DNA of 64,000 nt from contig JAIOAT010000001.1 in NCBI GenBank assembly GCA_019873685.1, positions 19,405 through 83,404 on the forward strand, given 5' to 3'. The translations under genes were made by a program, and so were the position numbers. Shown one piece after another: positions 32,773-41,174 of this stretch. The number at the start of each line of letters is the position of its first letter. Position 1 is the stretch's first letter. Source of the stretch: Chloroflexota bacterium. Its GTDB lineage: Bacteria > Chloroflexota > Anaerolineae > Aggregatilineales > Ch27. The notes under the pieces were generated by a model. That model had not been told where the DNA came from. It saw only the letters and a program-made list of their open reading frames with translations, and did not search any database.

Positions 32773-33219
32773 TCAGTCCAGAAGCCCCAGGTAGCCCAGG
32801 AGAGCGTCAAGGCCAAGCGTGTAGCTCCGCCAGCCGAAGCCGCTGATCTGACCCAGACAGGCCGGCGCTGTCAGCGAATGCTGGCGGAATGGCTCGCGGG
32901 CGTAGATGTTGCTCAGGTGGACTTCCACTACCGGCAAATCGATAGCGCTGATCGCGTCACGCAGGGCGATGGAGGTATGCGTATACGCGCCGGGGTTGAA
33001 GATCACGCCTGCCGCCCAGTTGCGGGCGATGTGCAGCGCGTCAATGAGCACACCTTCGTGGTTAGACTGCTGAATGCGCACCTGGACGCTGCGTTCGCGG
33101 GCATGATCCTGGATACGTTCATTGATGTCGTCGAGTGTGAGCGAACCGTAGACCTCCGGTTCGCGCTGCCCCAGCAGATTCAAGTTCGGGCCGTGCAGAA
33201 TCAGAATTTCGGGACTCAT
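32773..33219 (-). CDS. aroQ: type II 3-dehydroquinate dehydratase
   Basis: [32 protein letters not shown] and [14 protein letters not shown] motifs. Confidence 0.97.
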
Positions 33220-34277
33220 GGTTGATCAGCAAGCTCCTTCAAGACGGCCATCACCTCTTCAGGCGGTACGTTGTCTCTAACTACCGGCGCTCCGATGCCC
33301 TGTAACAGTACGAAACGGTTGCGGCCATCCTGCCATTTCTTATCCACCGCCATAGCCTGCCACAGATTGGCGGGGTCGTAGGGGCCAAAGCGCACCGGAA
33401 GGCCGACCTTGCCCAACAGACGTTCAACCTGCGCGGGTAGATCAGGCGAACACAGACCCAGGCGCGCCGAGAGCCGGGCAGCCGCGACCAGCCCGACGGC
33501 CACAGCCTCACCATGCTTCCAGGTGTAGCCGCTGACCTGCTCCAGGGCGTGGGCGAAAGTATGACCCAGGTTCAGGTGGGCGCGGATGTTCTGTTCGAAG
33601 GGGTCTTGCTGGACGACCTCGACTTTGACCCGCACCGCGCGCGGGATGAACTCCGCTGCCCGTTCGCGCTGTAACAGGGCGGAGTCGAGCAGGGCAGGGT
33701 CAGCCAGCAGACCGTGCTTGATCACTTCCGCCAGGCCGCAACGCCATTCGATGTCTGGCAGGGTTTGCAGCACGTCCGGATCGATCACCACCAGTTCGGG
33801 CTGTTTGAATGCGCCCACCAGATTCTTGCCTTCGGGCAGGTCAACGCCGGTTTTGCCGCCTACACTGGAATCGACCATGGCCAGCAGACTGGTAGGAACC
33901 TGCACCAGACGCACGCCACGCATATAGGTGGCGGCCACAAAACCCAGCAAATCGCCGATGACGCCGCCGCCCAGCGCGATGATCAACCCATGTCGATCCA
34001 GGCCAAGCTGCGCCAGACCGCTATAGACCACCCGGCACGTCTCCAGCGTCTTGTGCTGCTCACCATCCGGCAACGTGACGGTAACAGCGTTCGGGAGTTG
34101 CCCGGCCAGGGCGCGGCCATACAGCGGAGCCAGGGTCGTGTTGGTCCCGACGATGGTGCGCCCGGTCAGGCCGCGGGCAGCCAGAATCTGATCCAGATGC
34201 TGCAACCCTCCCGGCGCGAAGAGAATGTCATAACCGCCGACCGGCGTGCTTACGTGGATGCAGTCAGTTTCTGCCAT
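33216..34277 (-). CDS. aroB: 3-dehydroquinate synthase
   Basis: [41 protein letters not shown] and [12 protein letters not shown]. True ATG is at 34277; the track ORF is over-extended. Confidence 0.96.
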
Positions 34278-34777
34278 AAAGCCAGGATTTCCTCCATGGT
34301 TTGCCGGGGAGTCAGGGCGCTGGTATCCAGATGGTAGGGCAGGGCGGCATACGCTGCCCGGCGGGTTTTCAGCAGGGCATGGATTCGCTCCGGCAGGGCT
34401 GAGCCATCGAGCAGGGGGCGATCCTGCTGCATCTGGAGGCGCGCCAGCAGTACGTCCGGAGATGCTTCCAGGCAGATGACCACGCCGCTGCCGATCATCA
34501 ACGCCCGGTTGACCGGGTCGATCAACGCCCCGCCGCCAGTGGCGATGACCAGCCCATCCCGCGCAGCCAGTTCGTGACATAACTCGCGCTCCATGCGGCG
34601 GAAGGCGGCTTCGCCCCGCGTGGCGAAGATAGCCGGGATGTTCAGCCCGGCGCGCTGTTCGATCAGCGCGTCCATGTCCACAAATGGCCGGCCCAGCTGT
34701 TCGGCCACCAGCCGGCCAACAGTGGTCTTGCCCGTGCCCATGAAGCCAGTCAGGACGAGATTCATCGCCCGGCTCAC
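34250..34777 (-). CDS. aroK: shikimate kinase
   Basis: LTGFMGTGKTTVG, DMD, GEAAFRRME, ATGGG and RPLL motifs. Confidence 0.96.
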   Translation of the reverse strand: MSRAMNLVLTGFMGTGKTTVGRLVAEQLGRPFVDMDALIEQRAGLNIPAIFATRGEAAFRRMERELCHELAARDGLVIATGGGALIDPVNRALMIGSGVVICLEASPDVLLARLQMQQDRPLLDGSALPERIHALLKTRRAAYAALPYHLDTSALTPRQTMEEILALWQKLTAST

Positions 34778-35184
34778 TCTCCGTTCTGTCGGTCGTAATG
34801 GCGAATGGCCATGCCGGTGACGGGGCGCATGCCCAGGCGCTCGTAAAAAGGCTGCAGGGCGGCGTCACAGACCAGGTCCAGCGCATATAGATGGCGGCAG
34901 GTAGCGATCATCCGCTGCATCAGACCGGTGCCGATCCCGCGCCGCTGGTATTCCGGCAGCACTTCCAGGTTGGGGATGAAGGCGGCGTGCAGCCCGTCGC
35001 TGATGGCGTTGACGAAGCCGACGACGCGCCCGCTGGTTTCATCAATCGCCAGCCAGACGACCGCGCTCCCCTGCAGAATTCTGAGGTGTGTCTCCGGAGT
35101 GGGCGGGTTCGGCCAGCCGACGAAGAAGCCGCGCAATTGATCAGGAGTGATCCCGCTCAGGGAATCGGTGTAGCGGATGGTCAT
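34774..35184 (-). CDS. GNAT-family N-acetyltransferase embedded in aro operon
   Basis: VVGFVNAISDG, LEVLPEYQRRGIGTGL and FYERLG motifs; ATG at 35184 directly after the aroC stop. Confidence 0.9.
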   Translation of the reverse strand: MTIRYTDSLSGITPDQLRGFFVGWPNPPTPETHLRILQGSAVVWLAIDETSGRVVGFVNAISDGLHAAFIPNLEVLPEYQRRGIGTGLMQRMIATCRHLYALDLVCDAALQPFYERLGMRPVTGMAIRHYDRQNGE

Positions 35185-35185
35185 G

Positions 35186-36391
35186 CTAGAACTCCAGGTC
35201 GGGCGGCCAGTTGTAGCCAAACTGCCAGGGTTCATTTCGCATAGTCAATTCACCTAATGAACCCCGACGCAGGTCGGCAAAGCGAGCACGCAATTCATCC
35301 AGATGATCACCGCCAAGCTTCTCGAGCAGCGCGTCAGCCAGCACAAAGGCGACCATCGCCTCGCCGATGACTACAGCGCGCGGCACGGCGCAGAAGTCTG
35401 AGCGCTCATACACCGTCTGGCTTGCCTCGCCGGTTGCCAGGTCGACCGTCCCTAGCGGCGTAAGGGTGGTGCTGATCGGCTTCATGGCGGCACGCAGGAT
35501 CAGCGGCTCGCCGGTGGTGATGCCTCCTTCCAGACCCCCGGCGCGGTTAGACTTGCGACGCACCAGGCCATCTTCTGCCACGATCTCATCGTGAACCTGC
35601 GTGCCGGGCAGGGCGGTGTTGGCGAACGCGTGCCCGATCTCGGCCCCTTTGATGGAGGGGATGCTACCCAGCGCGGCCAGTAGCCGACCGGTCAGCCGGC
35701 GATCCCAGTGTACGTGGCTGCCCAGACCGGGCGGCAGGCCCAGCGCCACGATCTCAAAGATGCCGCCGAGCGTGTCTCTGGCGATCTTGGCCTGACGGAT
35801 CGCTTCCCGCATGGCGGCATCGGCGGCTTCGTCCGGGCAGCGAACCTCGCTGGCTTCGGCCCTGGCGAAGCGGGCAGGATAGTCCATGTCCGCTGGAAGA
35901 TCAGCTTCTACAGGGCCGATGCGGGTCACATAGCCGCCGACTACAATGCCGAAAGTGGACAGCAGCTTCCTGCAGATAGCCCCGACCGCCACCCGCGCTG
36001 CCGTCTCGCGGGCGCTGGCCCGTTCCAGCGCCAGGCGCAGGTCGCGGTAGCCGTACTTGATAGCCCCGGTCAGGTCAGCGTGGCCGGGGCGCGGGGTCGT
36101 CAGGGGGGCGATGTCGCGCCCGGCCCAGTGTTTCCAGTCCCGGTTGCCGATGAGCAGGGCGATTGGCGCGCCGGTAGTTTGCCCGGCCATTACGCCAGCA
36201 GTCAGCCGCACCTGATCGCGCTCGATCTGCATCCGTCCGCCGCTGCCATAGCCCTGTTGACGGCGGGCCAGATCGCGGTTGATCTCCTCCGGGTCAAGCG
36301 GTAGCCCGGCGGGCATCCCTTCCAGAATGGCAGTAAGCAGCGGGCCGTGCGATTCGCCGGCGGTAAGAAAACGCAATCGTGAAGGGGTCAT
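35186..36391 (-). CDS. aroC: chorismate synthase
   Basis: LRFLTAGESHG, RPGHAD, ERASARETAARVA, SNRAGGLEGG, MKPIST and ERSD motifs. Confidence 0.98.
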   Translation of the reverse strand: MTPSRLRFLTAGESHGPLLTAILEGMPAGLPLDPEEINRDLARRQQGYGSGGRMQIERDQVRLTAGVMAGQTTGAPIALLIGNRDWKHWAGRDIAPLTTPRPGHADLTGAIKYGYRDLRLALERASARETAARVAVGAICRKLLSTFGIVVGGYVTRIGPVEADLPADMDYPARFARAEASEVRCPDEAADAAMREAIRQAKIARDTLGGIFEIVALGLPPGLGSHVHWDRRLTGRLLAALGSIPSIKGAEIGHAFANTALPGTQVHDEIVAEDGLVRRKSNRAGGLEGGITTGEPLILRAAMKPISTTLTPLGTVDLATGEASQTVYERSDFCAVPRAVVIGEAMVAFVLADALLEKLGGDHLDELRARFADLRRGSLGELTMRNEPWQFGYNWPPDLEF

Positions 36392-37257
36392 GTGAGGGCC
36401 TGCCTTGCTGCGTCCAGCATGATGTCGATCGGAGCCTCGCGCCCTGTCCAGAGGGTGAACGCCGCCGCTCCCTGGCGGACGAGCATCCCGAGGCCGTTGT
36501 ACGCTGCGGCACCGGAATCCAGTGCCTGCCGCATCAGCCGCGTTTGCGCCGGGCGGTAGACCATATCATACACTACCGCTGCCGATGGAATCGCCAGGTC
36601 AGAAGGCCAGGGCGTTTCATCGTCATGGGGCCACATGCCGACCGGCGTGCAGTGAACGATCAAGCGGATCTGGCTCAGGTCGATGCGCCTGAGCGCCTCC
36701 CAGGGTATGGCATGGATCTCCGTTTGCGCTGGCAGGTTGCGCCTGGCTTCGTTAACCAGCTGTTCGCCGCGTTCCGGCCTGCGGGACGCGATCGTGATCG
36801 TATATCCCTGACGGGCCAGCACGACCGCTGCCGCACGGGCAGCGCCGCCCGCCCCCAGGATCAGGGCGCTGGCTCCCGGCTCAGGCAGGCCGACCAGGGC
36901 GCGGAGGTCATGGTGGAGGCCAGCGGCATCGGTGTTTGTCCCTTCCCAGCGGATGACGCCACCTTCCTCGACAGCAGCGATAGTGTTGACCGCGCCGATC
37001 AGACGCGCCTCCGGCCGGATGCTATCCAGCAGATCGATCACTGCGCGTTTGTGGGGCACGGTGACGTTCAGACCGCGGAGGCCGTCCGCCTGCAGCGCCC
37101 GAAGTCCAGAAGCAAGGTTGTCAGGGGAGATGGGGTAGGCGTCATAGCGCCAGTTGAGGCCCAGCGCGGTGAAGGCTGCATTGAACATAGCCGGGCTGAC
37201 GCTGTGCGCGACCGGCCACCCGATCAAGCCAACCCGTTGGATGGCGCTGACGGTCAT
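36388..37257 (-). CDS. aroE: shikimate dehydrogenase
   Basis: GWPVAHSVSP, GLNVTVPHK, GAVNT, NTD, GAGGAARA and DMVYRP motifs. Confidence 0.96.
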   Translation of the reverse strand: MTVSAIQRVGLIGWPVAHSVSPAMFNAAFTALGLNWRYDAYPISPDNLASGLRALQADGLRGLNVTVPHKRAVIDLLDSIRPEARLIGAVNTIAAVEEGGVIRWEGTNTDAAGLHHDLRALVGLPEPGASALILGAGGAARAAAVVLARQGYTITIASRRPERGEQLVNEARRNLPAQTEIHAIPWEALRRIDLSQIRLIVHCTPVGMWPHDDETPWPSDLAIPSAAVVYDMVYRPAQTRLMRQALDSGAAAYNGLGMLVRQGAAAFTLWTGREAPIDIMLDAARQALT

Positions 37258-38549
37258 AGCACCTGCGCTCCCAGCTGCGCCAGGGTGGCGGCAAAGCCCG
37301 GAAACGAGTCCGCGGCGCAGGCGGCGTCATTCACGACGGTTGTCGCGGTAGCGATCAGCCCCGCTACGGCCAGACTCATGGCAATCCGGTGATCATCGTG
37401 GCCGTCCACCACAGCTCCATGCAATTGCTGTGGGCCGCGGATGGTGAAACCGTCTTCGTGCTCGGCGATCACCGCGCCCATCTTGCGCAGCTCGGCGGCC
37501 ATGACAGCGATGCGGTCGGTCTCTTTGACTCGCAACTCGCGCGCGTCCCGCACAGTGGTTTCGCCTTCGGCGCACAGGGCGGCGATCATCAGGATTGGAA
37601 ATTCGTCGATCATCCGGACGACCGTCTCTCCCGCGACCTCGCAGGCTCTGAGCGGCGTCGCTGCAACGCTGAGCGTACCGACCGGGTCCCCGCCAGCCGT
37701 CCCGGTCTCCGTCACCGCGATGCGCGCTCCCATTGCCATGAGGACATCCAGCAGGCCGGTGCGGGTTGGATTGAGATCGACGTTTTCCAGGATAACCTGA
37801 CTGCCCGGCACAATGGTTGCTGCCACCAGCAGGAACGCTGCTGACGAAAAGTCCCCCGGCACGGTCAGATCGAGGGGGCGCAGCGGGTTTCCGGGCCGCA
37901 GGGTGACGGTATTGCCGTTCAGCGTCAGGTCTGCCCCCATTGACAGAAGCAGGCGCTCCGTATGATCGCGGGCCGGGCCGGGCTGGATGACGGTTGTGGG
38001 GCCGTCAGCGAACAGGCCGGCCAGCAGCAGAGCGCTTTTGACCTGGCCGCTGGCAATGGGCATGGCATAGTGGATACCGCGCAGGTGGGCTGGCTCGAAG
38101 TGCAACGGTGGCAGGCCATCCGTGTCGGTCACTCGCGCGCCCATCAGTCGGAGTGGCTCCGTCAGGCGGCGCATCGGTCGGCGCCGGAGTTGTGCGGAAC
38201 CATCCAGCGTGCTGGGGAACGGTTGGCCGGCCAGGATACCGGCCAGCAGGCGCAACCCCGTGCCGGCATTGTCCAGATGCAGGGGTTCACGCGGTGGGCG
38301 GAGCGTGCCGCCCTGCACAAGCAAAGTCGTTGGATCGGGGCGCTCTACCGGCACTCCCAGGGCGCGGATTGCGCCCAGGGTAGCCAGCGTATCGCCCGCC
38401 GGGAGCCAGCCGCGGATCGTGCTGGCGCCATGCGCCAGGGCGGCGAACATGACGGCCCGGTGGCTGATGCTTTTGTCGCCGGGGACAGTGATCTGGCCCC
38501 GCAGTGCTGTAGCGGGACGGATGGTCAGGGTGGCGGGATCGGTCATCAT
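37254..38549 (-). CDS. aroA: EPSP synthase
   Basis: PGDKSISHRA, LRRRPM, SGQVKSA, RDHTE, DEFP, KETDR and DHRIAM motifs. Confidence 0.98.
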   Translation of the reverse strand: MMTDPATLTIRPATALRGQITVPGDKSISHRAVMFAALAHGASTIRGWLPAGDTLATLGAIRALGVPVERPDPTTLLVQGGTLRPPREPLHLDNAGTGLRLLAGILAGQPFPSTLDGSAQLRRRPMRRLTEPLRLMGARVTDTDGLPPLHFEPAHLRGIHYAMPIASGQVKSALLLAGLFADGPTTVIQPGPARDHTERLLLSMGADLTLNGNTVTLRPGNPLRPLDLTVPGDFSSAAFLLVAATIVPGSQVILENVDLNPTRTGLLDVLMAMGARIAVTETGTAGGDPVGTLSVAATPLRACEVAGETVVRMIDEFPILMIAALCAEGETTVRDARELRVKETDRIAVMAAELRKMGAVIAEHEDGFTIRGPQQLHGAVVDGHDDHRIAMSLAVAGLIATATTVVNDAACAADSFPGFAATLAQLGAQVL

Positions 38550-39454
38550 TGTTTTTGCCTGTTCGGCAGGAGTTGCTCCAAGCCGTATTCAGCGGCCCAG
38601 CGTACACGCGCATCATGGGCGCTCTGCAGCAGGGCAGCAAGTTCCTCGCTATCGTGGGAAATCAGGGCAACTTCCAGCATGGCCAGCTGGACACGGAACA
38701 GCGCCAGCAGGCGGGCGATGGCGGTTGTGTTGGTGCTGATGATATCACTCATCATACGGATGTCGCTGGCGGCCAGGCGGGAAGTGTCGCGGAAGCCGCT
38801 GGCGGCCAGTTGCCAGATCATCGGATCGACCCGGGCCTCTCCGTCAACAGTGCGCACCAGCGCTGTACTCAGCAGGTAGGGCAGGTGGCTGATCCCGGCA
38901 ACCAGATGGTCATGGCGGTCAGGGTCCATCTCAACCGGCACCGCCGCCAGCGCGTCGACCAGTTCCAGGGCGCGTAGACGCGCGGCAGGAGTGACGCGCC
39001 GCGGCGCACACAGGACAAACGGGCGCCCCCGGTACAGCGTTGCGTCAGCTTCCTGGATGCCGCTGCGCTCTTTGCCGCACATCGGATGACCGCCCATCGC
39101 CAGGACGCTGATCGGCAGGTTGCTCATCGCCTCACAGATGCGGGCCTTGGTGCTGCCCAGATCGATCAGCAGAGTGTTGGCCCGCAGGTAGCTGCCAATG
39201 CGGTTTTGAAGCATATCCAGGATGACCCGCACCGGGGCAGCCAGGATGACGGTTTGCGCCTCACTGACGCCTTCCCGGAGATCAGGTGTTGCAGCGTCGA
39301 CGATGCCGCGCTGGAGAGCGTAGTCCAGCGTTGCGGCGTCCGGATCGACGCCCACCAGGCGCTGGACTTTGTTCCGTAGCGCCAGCGCTGTTGACCCGCC
39401 CATCAGCCCAAGCCCGACAATCGCCACAGTCTGGTCTTGCAGAGTCATGCTCAT
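38546..39454 (-). CDS. tyrA: prephenate dehydrogenase
   Basis: [32 protein letters not shown] and GFRDTSRLA motifs. Confidence 0.94.
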
Positions 39455-40470
39455 AGCGTCCGATCTACTGCTTCAGCCACCCGGCGCAATTCCTGCACCA
39501 TCTTAGCGAAGCGTTCCGGAGTCAGCGACTGCATACCATCGGAGACGGCTTCCTCCGGCCTGGGATGCACCTCGACAATGATTCCGTCCGCGCCAGCGGC
39601 AATCGCCGCGCGGGCCGCGGGGGCCACGTACTGCCAGTAACCAGTGGCGTGACTGGGATCAGCGATCACGGGCAGGTGGGTGCGTTCCTTGAGGACGGGG
39701 ATGGCATTAAGGTCAAAGGTATTGCGGGTGTACCGCTCAAACGTGCGGATGCCACGCTCGCACAACATCAGACGGGTGTTCCCGTGGCTGAGGATGTACT
39801 CGGCAGACATCAGCAGCTCCTCGATAGTATTGCTCATGCCGCGCTTGAGCAATACGGTGTGTTGCGCCTTGCCAACTGCGTGCAATAGCGAGTAGTTCTG
39901 CATGTTACGCGCACCGATCTGCAGGACATCGGCGTAGTCGCAGACCAGCGGGACACTCTCCGGATCCATGACTTCGGTCACGACGGGCAGGCCGGTTTCC
40001 TCTCGCGCCTCTGCCAGGTACTTCAACCCTTCTTCGCCCAGACCCTGAAAGGCGTAGGGCGATGTGCGCGGCTTGAATGCGCCGCCGCGTAGGGCGGTCG
40101 CGCCGGCTTCTTTGACAGCATGGGCTGTCTCCAGAATCTGCGCACGGCTTTCTACTGAGCAGGGGCCGGCGATCACCACGATTCGTGTGTCGCCCACCTG
40201 GTGGTCGTTGAGGGCGACCAGGGTGTTATCCGGATGGAACTCGCGGCTGGCCAGCTTGTAAGGATGGCTGACCGGCATCGTGCGCTCGACGCCGTCCATC
40301 AGTTCGAATTGTTCGCGGTATTGCCGGACGCTGCCATCCCCGACGATACCGATGATGGTACGCTCCTGACCGCTGCTGAGGTGAGCTTCATAGCCGAGTT
40401 TCTTGATCTTGGCGATTACCGCAGAAATCTCTTTGGTTGTGGCACCAGCCTTCATCACAACAATCATCAT
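39451..40470 (-). CDS. aroF: DAHP synthase, type I-beta with N-terminal regulatory domain
   Basis: [42 protein letters not shown] and DPSH motifs. Confidence 0.97.
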
Positions 40471-40904
40471 TCATTTCTCCTTGCCCCGGCGGGGCTATCA
40501 CTATCGTCAGGCACGGGCGGGATGTTCAGAGCGCGGTCTGGCCGCAGGACTTCCGCCCCACGCAGGTAGACATGCCGGATTTCATGCTGAGGAAGGTGGG
40601 TATTCCAGTGGATGAGGACGCGGATGCAACGGGGCAGGCTGCCCGGCGGCGCGATCTCGACGGCGCTGAGCAGGGCAGCATCCTGCCAGCCGATCTGCCG
40701 CGCAGCGGTGGCCGGGTAGGCGCTGGTCAGGTCCGGCGTCGCGGTGAAGATTGCGCTGGCGACATCGGCCTCTTCAATGGCGTTGGCGGCGATCAACGCC
40801 CTGAGCAGCTCCCGTGTGACGCGGTGGATGTCCTCCGGGGTATCAGCGTCGGCGACGGTAGCGCCGCGAACGCCCCGGCACACTCTGGGGGGAAGATCGA
40901 CCAT
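40467..40904 (-). CDS. aroH: chorismate mutase, AroH class
   Basis: [34 protein letters not shown] and HVYL motifs. Confidence 0.95.
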
Positions 40905-40939: not shown

Positions 40940-40970
40940 AAAAAAGCGCAGGGGCGTTAGCCCTGCGCTT
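40940..40970 (-). terminator. attenuator terminator of aro operon leader
   Basis: Transcript AAGCGCAGGG-CUAACGC-CCCUGCGCUU-UUUU; perfect 10-bp stem plus U-run, 35 nt before the aroH start. Confidence 0.9.
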
Positions 40971-41001
40971 CCCTTAACCCGGTGTGATGCGTCGTCAGCC
41001 G

Positions 41002-41112
41002 CTAACGCCTGCGTCCGTTATGTCGCTTCGCGTAAAAGTAGAAGCCAAAATAGCCGCAGGTACGGCGGCTATAGACATGGTTCTCAAGGGCGGAGCGAAC
41101 GGACTCAGGCAC
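41002..41112 (-). CDS. Phe/Tyr-rich leader peptide, 36 aa (MPESVRSALENHVYSRRTCGYFGFYFYAKRHNGRRR)
   Basis: GGAG RBS 8 nt before GTG; the YFGFYFY tract (41032-41052) has 6 of 7 Phe/Tyr codons; too short for the ORF track. Confidence 0.85.
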   Translation of the reverse strand: MPESVRSALENHVYSRRTCGYFGFYFYAKRHNGRRR

Positions 41113-41145
41113 GCTGGTAACTCCTGTGCAACCTGATTTGGCTAG

Positions 41146-41174
41146 AGCATAGCCGGATAACCCGGCGCTGTCAA
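41146..41174 (-). promoter_or_regulatory. sigma70 promoter TTGACA-N17-TATGCT for aro operon leader
   Basis: Plus strand TGTCAA at 41169-41174 and AGCATA at 41146-41151. Confidence 0.8.

Follow-up and report, generated by a model that had tools for sequence, protein, structure and literature searches.

The stretch of Chloroflexota DNA analysed here (64,000 nt, hereafter the window) carries on its minus strand a shikimate operon of ten genes, aroH-DAHPS-tyrA-aroA-aroE-aroC-GNAT-aroK-aroB-aroQ (32773..40904, with the aroH ATG at 40904). By Pfam these encode, in order, an AroH-type chorismate mutase (CM_1), a DAHP synthase with a ferredoxin-like regulatory domain, a prephenate dehydrogenase, EPSP synthase, shikimate dehydrogenase, chorismate synthase, a GNAT acetyltransferase, shikimate kinase, dehydroquinate synthase and, at the operon end, a type II dehydroquinase, which bears out the ten-gene shikimate operon that a first-pass annotation had placed downstream of the leader described below. 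The genes abut or overlap, and a search for a strong internal promoter or terminator within the ten-gene operon found none. The frame of aroK, a separate ORF at 34250-34777 (minus strand), is hidden by the longest-ORF list; the GNAT gene (34774-35235, minus strand) lies between aroC and aroK, and its stop codon overlaps the aroK start. The same list gives aroB as a 556-aa frame (33216-34886, minus strand), whose real start lies near 34260; the first ~210 residues of that frame are without a family match and overlap aroK, which is read in another frame. Upstream of the leader, an aldo/keto reductase gene on the same strand ends 45 nt 5′ of the leader promoter.

Reading along the minus strand towards aroH, the leader begins with a sigma-70-type promoter (41146..41174), composed of a −35 element TTGACA (41174-41169), a 17-nt spacing and a −10 element TATGCT (41151-41146). 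It matched 10 of the 12 consensus positions in a promoter scan that found two promoter-like sites in 1.2 kb versus 0.5 expected, and a TTGAC-N17/18-TAnnnT promoter is present at the equivalent place 5′ of the leader in relatives. A Shine-Dalgarno sequence, AGGAG (41125-41121), precedes with the spacing AGGAG-N8-GTG a leader ORF of 36 codons, VPESVRSALENHVYSRRTCGYFGFYFYAKRHNGRRR, running from GTG at 41112-41110 to TAG at 41004-41002. Codons 21 to 27 of this ORF (41052-41032) read YFGFYFY (TAT TTT GGC TTC TAC TTT TAC), constituting the putative control codons, and the tract reaches six aromatic residues of nine. Directly 5′ of the control codons, and abutting them, lies a hairpin, ATAGCCGC-N7-GCGGCTAT (41072-41050), followed by a U-rich run; its predicted energy is −11.8 kcal/mol (z = −2.3). 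This pre-tract hairpin recurs in the window's family with different stem sequences and was significant in 18 of 61 leaders, showing that it is not general; it is possibly an RNA polymerase pause hairpin, a candidate function that we infer.

The 3′ half of the leader contains the elements of a putative switch. Segment 2, the antiterminator strand (40989..41031), includes the strand CGCAGGCGTTAGC (41013-41001), which is complementary, with a 2-nt bulge, to GCTAACGC-CC-CTGCG (40961-40947) in the terminator loop and 3′ arm, together with a spacer after the stop codon (CTG..CGC, 40998-40989) that pairs with the terminator 5′ arm. An intrinsic terminator, GCGCAGGGC-TAAC-GCCCCTGCGC plus T6 (40940..40970; stem-loop 40968-40946, T6 40945-40940), closes the leader, with a GC-rich stem of 9 bp and a predicted energy of −15.4 kcal/mol for the core and −19.6 kcal/mol with the A/U extension. 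Segment 1, the predicted anti-antiterminator, is the 5′ part of the leader ORF (41090..41110), which pairs with 41031-41007 in minimum-free-energy folds without a ribosome. The promoter, ribosome-binding site, 36-codon ORF with YFGFYFY, hairpin and U-tailed terminator that the first-pass annotation had marked ahead of aroH were thus all found where it had put them, and the complementarity that it had described between the last leader codons and the terminator loop and 3′ arm was seen as well. Nine-residue windows with at least six F/Y/W are rare in this genome, making up 1.3e-5 of six-frame windows and occurring at 47 places in 4.1 Mb, and the chance expectation of such a window in a 300-nt leader is ~0.004. 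Because of this low expectation, and because dozens of genomes carry such a tract at the orthologous position, the aromatic tract is not a chance occurrence.

This recurrence was established at relatives' loci found by an AroH search, which identified aroH in 51 of the 61 same-order relatives. Among the first 30 of these loci, all 30 carry a short ORF with six to nine aromatic residues of nine upstream of aroH, and the aromatic ORF ends 50-70 nt 5′ of a T-run; among the remaining 21 loci, 17-19 have the same arrangement. A leader was likewise present in 13/13 Anaerolineae-labelled genomes. A phylum-wide sample showed it in 17 of 18 genomes that belong to the same class but to different orders, and in several further families. 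The named public genomes with the leader include Aggregatilineales, Anaerolineales/Anaerolineaceae, Ardenticatenales, Promineifilaceae, Caldilineaceae, Roseiflexus and Roseiflexaceae. Across the sampled relatives, five to nine aromatic residues per nine-residue window, with a terminator after them, were observed in nearly all. The F/Y tract, whose conservation in aroH leaders across relatives had been put forward as a check on the first-pass annotation, is therefore conserved in the same order, in the class and in other Chloroflexota families. As a negative control, ~55 loci from Planctomycetota, Actinomycetota, Gemmatimonadota, Cyanobacteria, Eisenbacteria and Dehalococcoidia were inspected, and the leader was absent upstream of aroH. 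A DNA similarity search of the order with the leader returned only the ten genomes of the window's family, plus short terminator-like matches; one of these, at 4691-4712 of contig C4 in the window's own genome, was rejected as not being a terminator. At two Candidatus Eisenbacteria loci (L075 and L076), a short ORF upstream of aroH (..LNNSYYAAY.. and ..SSYYAAD.., respectively) is followed ~50 nt later by a T-run, and may represent a Tyr-type leader in another phylum.

Alternative folds were compared to see which structures the window leader can adopt. In the full-length fold without a ribosome, the terminator forms and the tract-to-stop stretch is sequestered by the 5′ portion of the ORF, with 17 of 22 antiterminator-strand bases paired upstream. 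To model a stalled ribosome, the free RNA was taken to begin 13-16 nt beyond the codon in the A site. At equilibrium the terminator was then still preferred, with −28.6 kcal/mol versus −27.6 kcal/mol for the antiterminator, corresponding to a terminator probability of 0.93. When the transcript was instead lengthened stepwise under the same stalled ribosome, the antiterminator (41013-41001 paired to the loop and 3′ arm, the post-stop spacer to the 5′ arm) remained the best structure throughout, giving way only once the final bases of the 3′ arm had been added. Since the terminator is still the lowest-energy state at equilibrium, antitermination rests on a kinetic, co-transcriptional argument, and the modelled series by transcript length supports such a switch. 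With a ribosome placed at the stop codon, the model has the strand covered, and only the terminator can form.

Covariation was evaluated in an alignment of the ten members of the window's family. The helix of 10 bp that joins the leader to the terminator loop was paired in 94.9% of cells, versus 37-58% in a control in which the 3′ partner columns were slid by 1-3 positions, and one of its positions is U-A in five and G-C in four sequences, a compensatory change that supports the pairing to the terminator loop, as had been looked for from the outset. The terminator stem was 92.2% paired in the ten sequences, also with one compensatory pair. The terminator-side base of the covarying position is itself unpaired in the terminator in 6 of 10 sequences, so its covariation is explained only by the antiterminator pairing. 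The covariation is thin, one compensatory pair per helix among ten related sequences, and is no weaker for this helix than for the terminator.

Further analysis was performed on 61 leaders from different families by calculating how far the best fold lacking the terminator lies above the terminator state in energy. On average this gap was 3.1 kcal/mol, against 10.3 kcal/mol with dinucleotide-shuffled upstream segments, and 60 of 61 leaders fell below their own shuffle mean. Swapping in non-cognate upstream segments raised the mean gap to 9.5 kcal/mol, and the cognate segment was better in 59/61, indicating that the upstream segment and the terminator co-evolve. In some subgroups (e.g. L011-L014, L033 and L040) the predicted antiterminator was no better than shuffled. 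Together with the window's antiterminator lying within 1 kcal/mol of the terminator state, the shuffle and swap tests favour the alternative fold that the first-pass annotation had suggested examining. In nearly all leaders, the antiterminator strand occupies the interval ~40 to 2 nt 5′ of the stop codon, a position downstream of a stalled ribosome and beneath a terminating one. Terminators of the 61 leaders range from −11.6 to −28.4 kcal/mol and are strong and U-tailed in most, and full-length folds form the terminator in 59/61, with a mean 53% of segment-2 bases paired upstream to partners lying upstream of or within the tract. This 1:2 pairing would complete the classical four-segment scheme, in which an anti-antiterminator is predicted by the folding model.

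Based on these structures, a mechanism can be proposed. Transcription would start ~30 nt upstream of the 36-codon leader ORF. If no ribosome translates the leader, segment 1 would pair with segment 2, the terminator (3:4) would form and transcription would stop before aroH. When charged Phe- and Tyr-tRNAs are plentiful, the ribosome would reach the TAG at 41004-41002 inside segment 2 and cover the strand, again permitting the terminator. When charging of Phe- or Tyr-tRNA is scarce, the ribosome would stall on YFGFYFY, segment 1 could not hold segment 2, and segment 2 would be expected to pair with the emerging terminator loop and 3′ arm, with the spacer on the 5′ arm, so that RNA polymerase reads through into the ten-gene operon. 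The proposal of the first-pass annotation, namely that stalling frees the antiterminator and a ribosome at the stop codon masks it, is in this way supported by the conserved tract, the position of the strand, the fold, shuffle and swap tests and the compensatory change. A translatable ORF, a cluster of pathway codons, an intrinsic terminator and a mutually exclusive antiterminator, by which an attenuator is recognized, were all found computationally, and the window leader is very probably a classical ribosome-mediated transcription attenuator of an aromatic amino-acid operon. That leader translation and tRNA charging would control read-through, and which amino acid would be limiting, we infer from the sequences.

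The leader resembles several described systems, and the proposed mechanism is the one known from trpL, pheL and hisL. Like E. coli pheL-pheA and pheM-pheST (Rfam Phe_leader, RF01859), it has an aromatic-codon ORF, predicted 1:2, 2:3 and 3:4 folds and an intrinsic terminator before the gene, but pheL has Phe codons only and precedes one gene of a terminal branch, whereas the window leader has Phe plus Tyr codons and precedes a ten-gene operon. It shares with E. coli trpL-trpEDCBA (the Yanofsky model) the four-segment logic and, as predicted from the folds, termination when the leader is untranslated; unlike in trpL, where the stop codon precedes the antiterminator strand, the Chloroflexota leaders have it within that strand or immediately behind it, and the pairing involves the loop and both the 3′ and the 5′ arm. 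The earlier view that an antiterminator pairing to the 3′ arm is an unusual variant was overstated, given that the spacer pairs with the 5′ arm here and that the antiterminator engages both terminator arms in relatives. Multivalent leaders are known from ilvGMEDA (Leu/Val/Ile codons) and thr (Thr/Ile codons), in which one leader reports several amino acids. The Chloroflexota leaders are like these in placing several amino acids of a shared pathway on one leader, and unlike them in the amino acids and phylum concerned and in a codon set that changes with which pathways the genome encodes.

This variation concerns Trp. Phe and Tyr codons are both present in all 48 relatives' leaders tallied, typically at least three of each, and Trp codons are present in about half of the relatives' leaders. 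In the window's genome (G000, 97% complete), no chorismate-binding enzyme of the TrpE/PabB/MenF family was found, and three other family members (G001, G003 and G004), from its three closest genera, are likewise without one; in all four, the IGPS (TrpC) family is represented by a weak paralogue only (123-133 bits). These four genomes therefore look like tryptophan auxotrophs with full shikimate, Phe and Tyr routes. They are also the only family members without TGG in the leader, and the six with trpE and trpC all have TGG. Within the trp-less members TGG was lost by different sequence changes; the AroH and DAHPS tree is compatible with the trp pathway having been lost only once in the family, so the four may count as one event. 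A divergent IGPS-like gene (e.g. 19297-20037 of contig C24 of the window's genome, minus strand; 123-148 bits) was observed in 9 of 10 family genomes, including all four trp-less ones.

The same contrast recurs elsewhere. In family f2, genus g49 is without trpE, trpC and a Trp codon, and nine of the ten trp-positive genomes tallied have a Trp codon; family f4 repeats the contrast in G024 versus G036; and in family f9, of another order, all five Trp-codon leaders are in genomes with a TrpE-type match and the seven genomes without such a match have no Trp codon. Overall, 34 of 36 Trp-codon leaders are in TrpE-positive genomes and 15 of 17 TrpE-less genomes have no Trp codon (Fisher p = 0.002, a test that ignores phylogeny). 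Exceptions, with a Trp codon and no detectable trpE, are G600 (family f10) and G092 (family f2; also without trpC; 89% complete). We regard the link between a Trp codon in the leader and the trp pathway as suggestive, and it fits the logic of the device, since in a cell without Trp synthesis a ribosome halted at Trp codons would turn on a pathway unable to relieve the shortage. Whether the control-codon set is tuned by evolution to biosynthetic capacity, with Trp codons purged after loss of the trp branch, we hold to be evenly balanced. If true, the codon content of the leader would be a readable auxotrophy marker in uncultured Chloroflexota and metagenome-assembled genomes, and would provide direct evolutionary evidence of separate selection on each codon type in a multivalent leader.

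The closest described system, aroR-aroF of Corynebacterium glutamicum, bears on how many amino acids are reported. There a Phe-Tyr-Phe leader precedes the DAHP synthase operon (Neshat et al. 2014, as described in PMC11802643 and PMC4046766), so that mixed Phe/Tyr control codons before a shikimate-entry operon are common to both, as control by ribosome stalling would be, a likeness that is functional and by description. The initial judgement that dual Phe/Tyr sensing would be unusual went too far in view of this known mixed leader (PMC11802643, PMC4046766). The two differ in that aroR, from Actinomycetota, has F-Y-F only, whereas the Chloroflexota leaders have six to nine aromatic codons, with Trp in about half, and here precede a ten-gene operon headed by aroH. 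In C. glutamicum, read-through rose with Phe limitation and was unaffected by Tyr limitation (PMC11802643), and dual sensing therefore cannot be assumed. It is accordingly conceivable, if unlikely, that the window leader is an attenuator reporting one amino acid only (Phe or Tyr), or one acting mainly via Rho-dependent polarity or translational coupling, the latter variant drawing on the equilibrium fold that favours the terminator. The co-occurrence of F and Y codons in every tallied leader speaks against a single reported amino acid, as does the tracking of the trp pathway by Trp codons, a pattern pointing to selection on each codon type; the strong U-tailed terminator in most leaders speaks against the Rho or coupling variant.

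Alternative terminator and antiterminator folds would equally serve a ligand- or protein-binding device, so a riboswitch, a T-box or a TRAP- or PyrR-like target, rather than the ribosome, might choose between them. An Rfam scan of the leader gave three chance-level matches only (13.6-14.1 bits, E 2-8), to unrelated sRNA models; the Rfam leader families (Phe_leader, Trp_leader, His_leader and others) did not match the window leader, and neither did the T-box (RF00230: stem I, specifier loop, T-box sequence) at E up to 10. Besides this lack of any Rfam family match, the in-frame run of aromatic codons is the only feature common to all lineages, the RNA sequences of the helices differing between families, and almost every leader has its antiterminator strand immediately ahead of the stop codon. 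A binding RNA is on these grounds very unlikely, and attenuation by a translating ribosome is the reading retained here.

A simpler explanation would take the hairpins only as terminators or insulators of the aldo/keto reductase gene and the aromatic 'ORF' as a by-product of the U-rich stretch after the first hairpin. The first hairpin (41072-41050) with TTTGGCTTCT does score terminator-like, and the reductase gene ends close by on the same strand; however, the conserved promoter separates that gene from the leader, the pre-tract hairpin is not general, and the in-frame tract with its start and stop codons is kept in lineages with a different upstream gene. Moreover, the codons of the tract interchange synonymously, TTT with TTC and TAT with TAC, and TGG, TAC and TTC do not make U-runs. 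We consider this explanation highly improbable.

The ORF itself retains signals for translation, with an in-frame start codon in all 61 related leaders and a strong Shine-Dalgarno core in 27 of them, over a length of 15-54 codons (median 37). Outside the aromatic tract, the peptide sequences of relatives are unrelated, and genera of the window's family read the sequence beyond the tract in different frames, with the nucleotides GCGACATA..GGGCGTTAGC kept. Judging from this lack of conservation beyond the tract and from the retained nucleotides beneath a shifting frame, selection is on the aromatic codons and the RNA, not on the peptide product. The conserved presence of the ORF and its start signals might otherwise suggest a functional aromatic-rich micropeptide upstream of a constitutive or leaky terminator, an idea that the unconserved non-tract peptide, the variable length and the frame shifts in close relatives make scarcely credible.

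The leader, interpreted as a ribosome-mediated attenuator, is a conserved Chloroflexota family that is uncatalogued. A 2005 survey of Actinobacteria found neither Phe nor Tyr leaders (PMC1262725), and no report of leader-peptide attenuation in Chloroflexota was found in the searchable full-text literature. The predicted role of the family is to control entry into the shikimate pathway in Anaerolineae, Caldilineae-type lineages and Roseiflexus. To our knowledge, regulation in Chloroflexota is almost unstudied. The broad distribution, and a leader ORF that is missed by gene callers, mean that the family deserves a covariance model and annotation; the carriers include cultured Roseiflexus, which makes the prediction testable.

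The leader of the Roseiflexus homologue (genome G661, L145/L272; leader at ~1618-1790 of L272), MQSRSAYYFWFWYFASSPRDWLLRVG, includes two Trp codons within its tract and matches that of a Roseiflexus sp. MAG. The homologue is present in hot-spring mat metatranscriptomes, in which contig depth is higher across the leader and the gene upstream of it than across the downstream genes; the breaks of the assembled contigs do not coincide with the T-run across runs.

Other leaders were also sought in the window's genome. The region upstream of pheA has no Phe leader, and candidate Trp, Thr, Leu and Ile/Val leaders from a noisy genome screen turned out to be ends of ordinary genes, only one leader with four His codons holding up. 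This candidate histidine attenuator, outside the window at ~236,560-236,780 of contig C1 (plus strand), comprises a TTGACA-N17-TAGACT promoter, the leader MYKAGNGLVVCIAGVNHHHHRIPNRSDPAVR with four consecutive His codons, and a GC hairpin with T5, followed by a 442-aa hisD-like ORF. As read from its sequence, this His leader with a terminator before hisD would be a candidate precedent for attenuation in the same genome.
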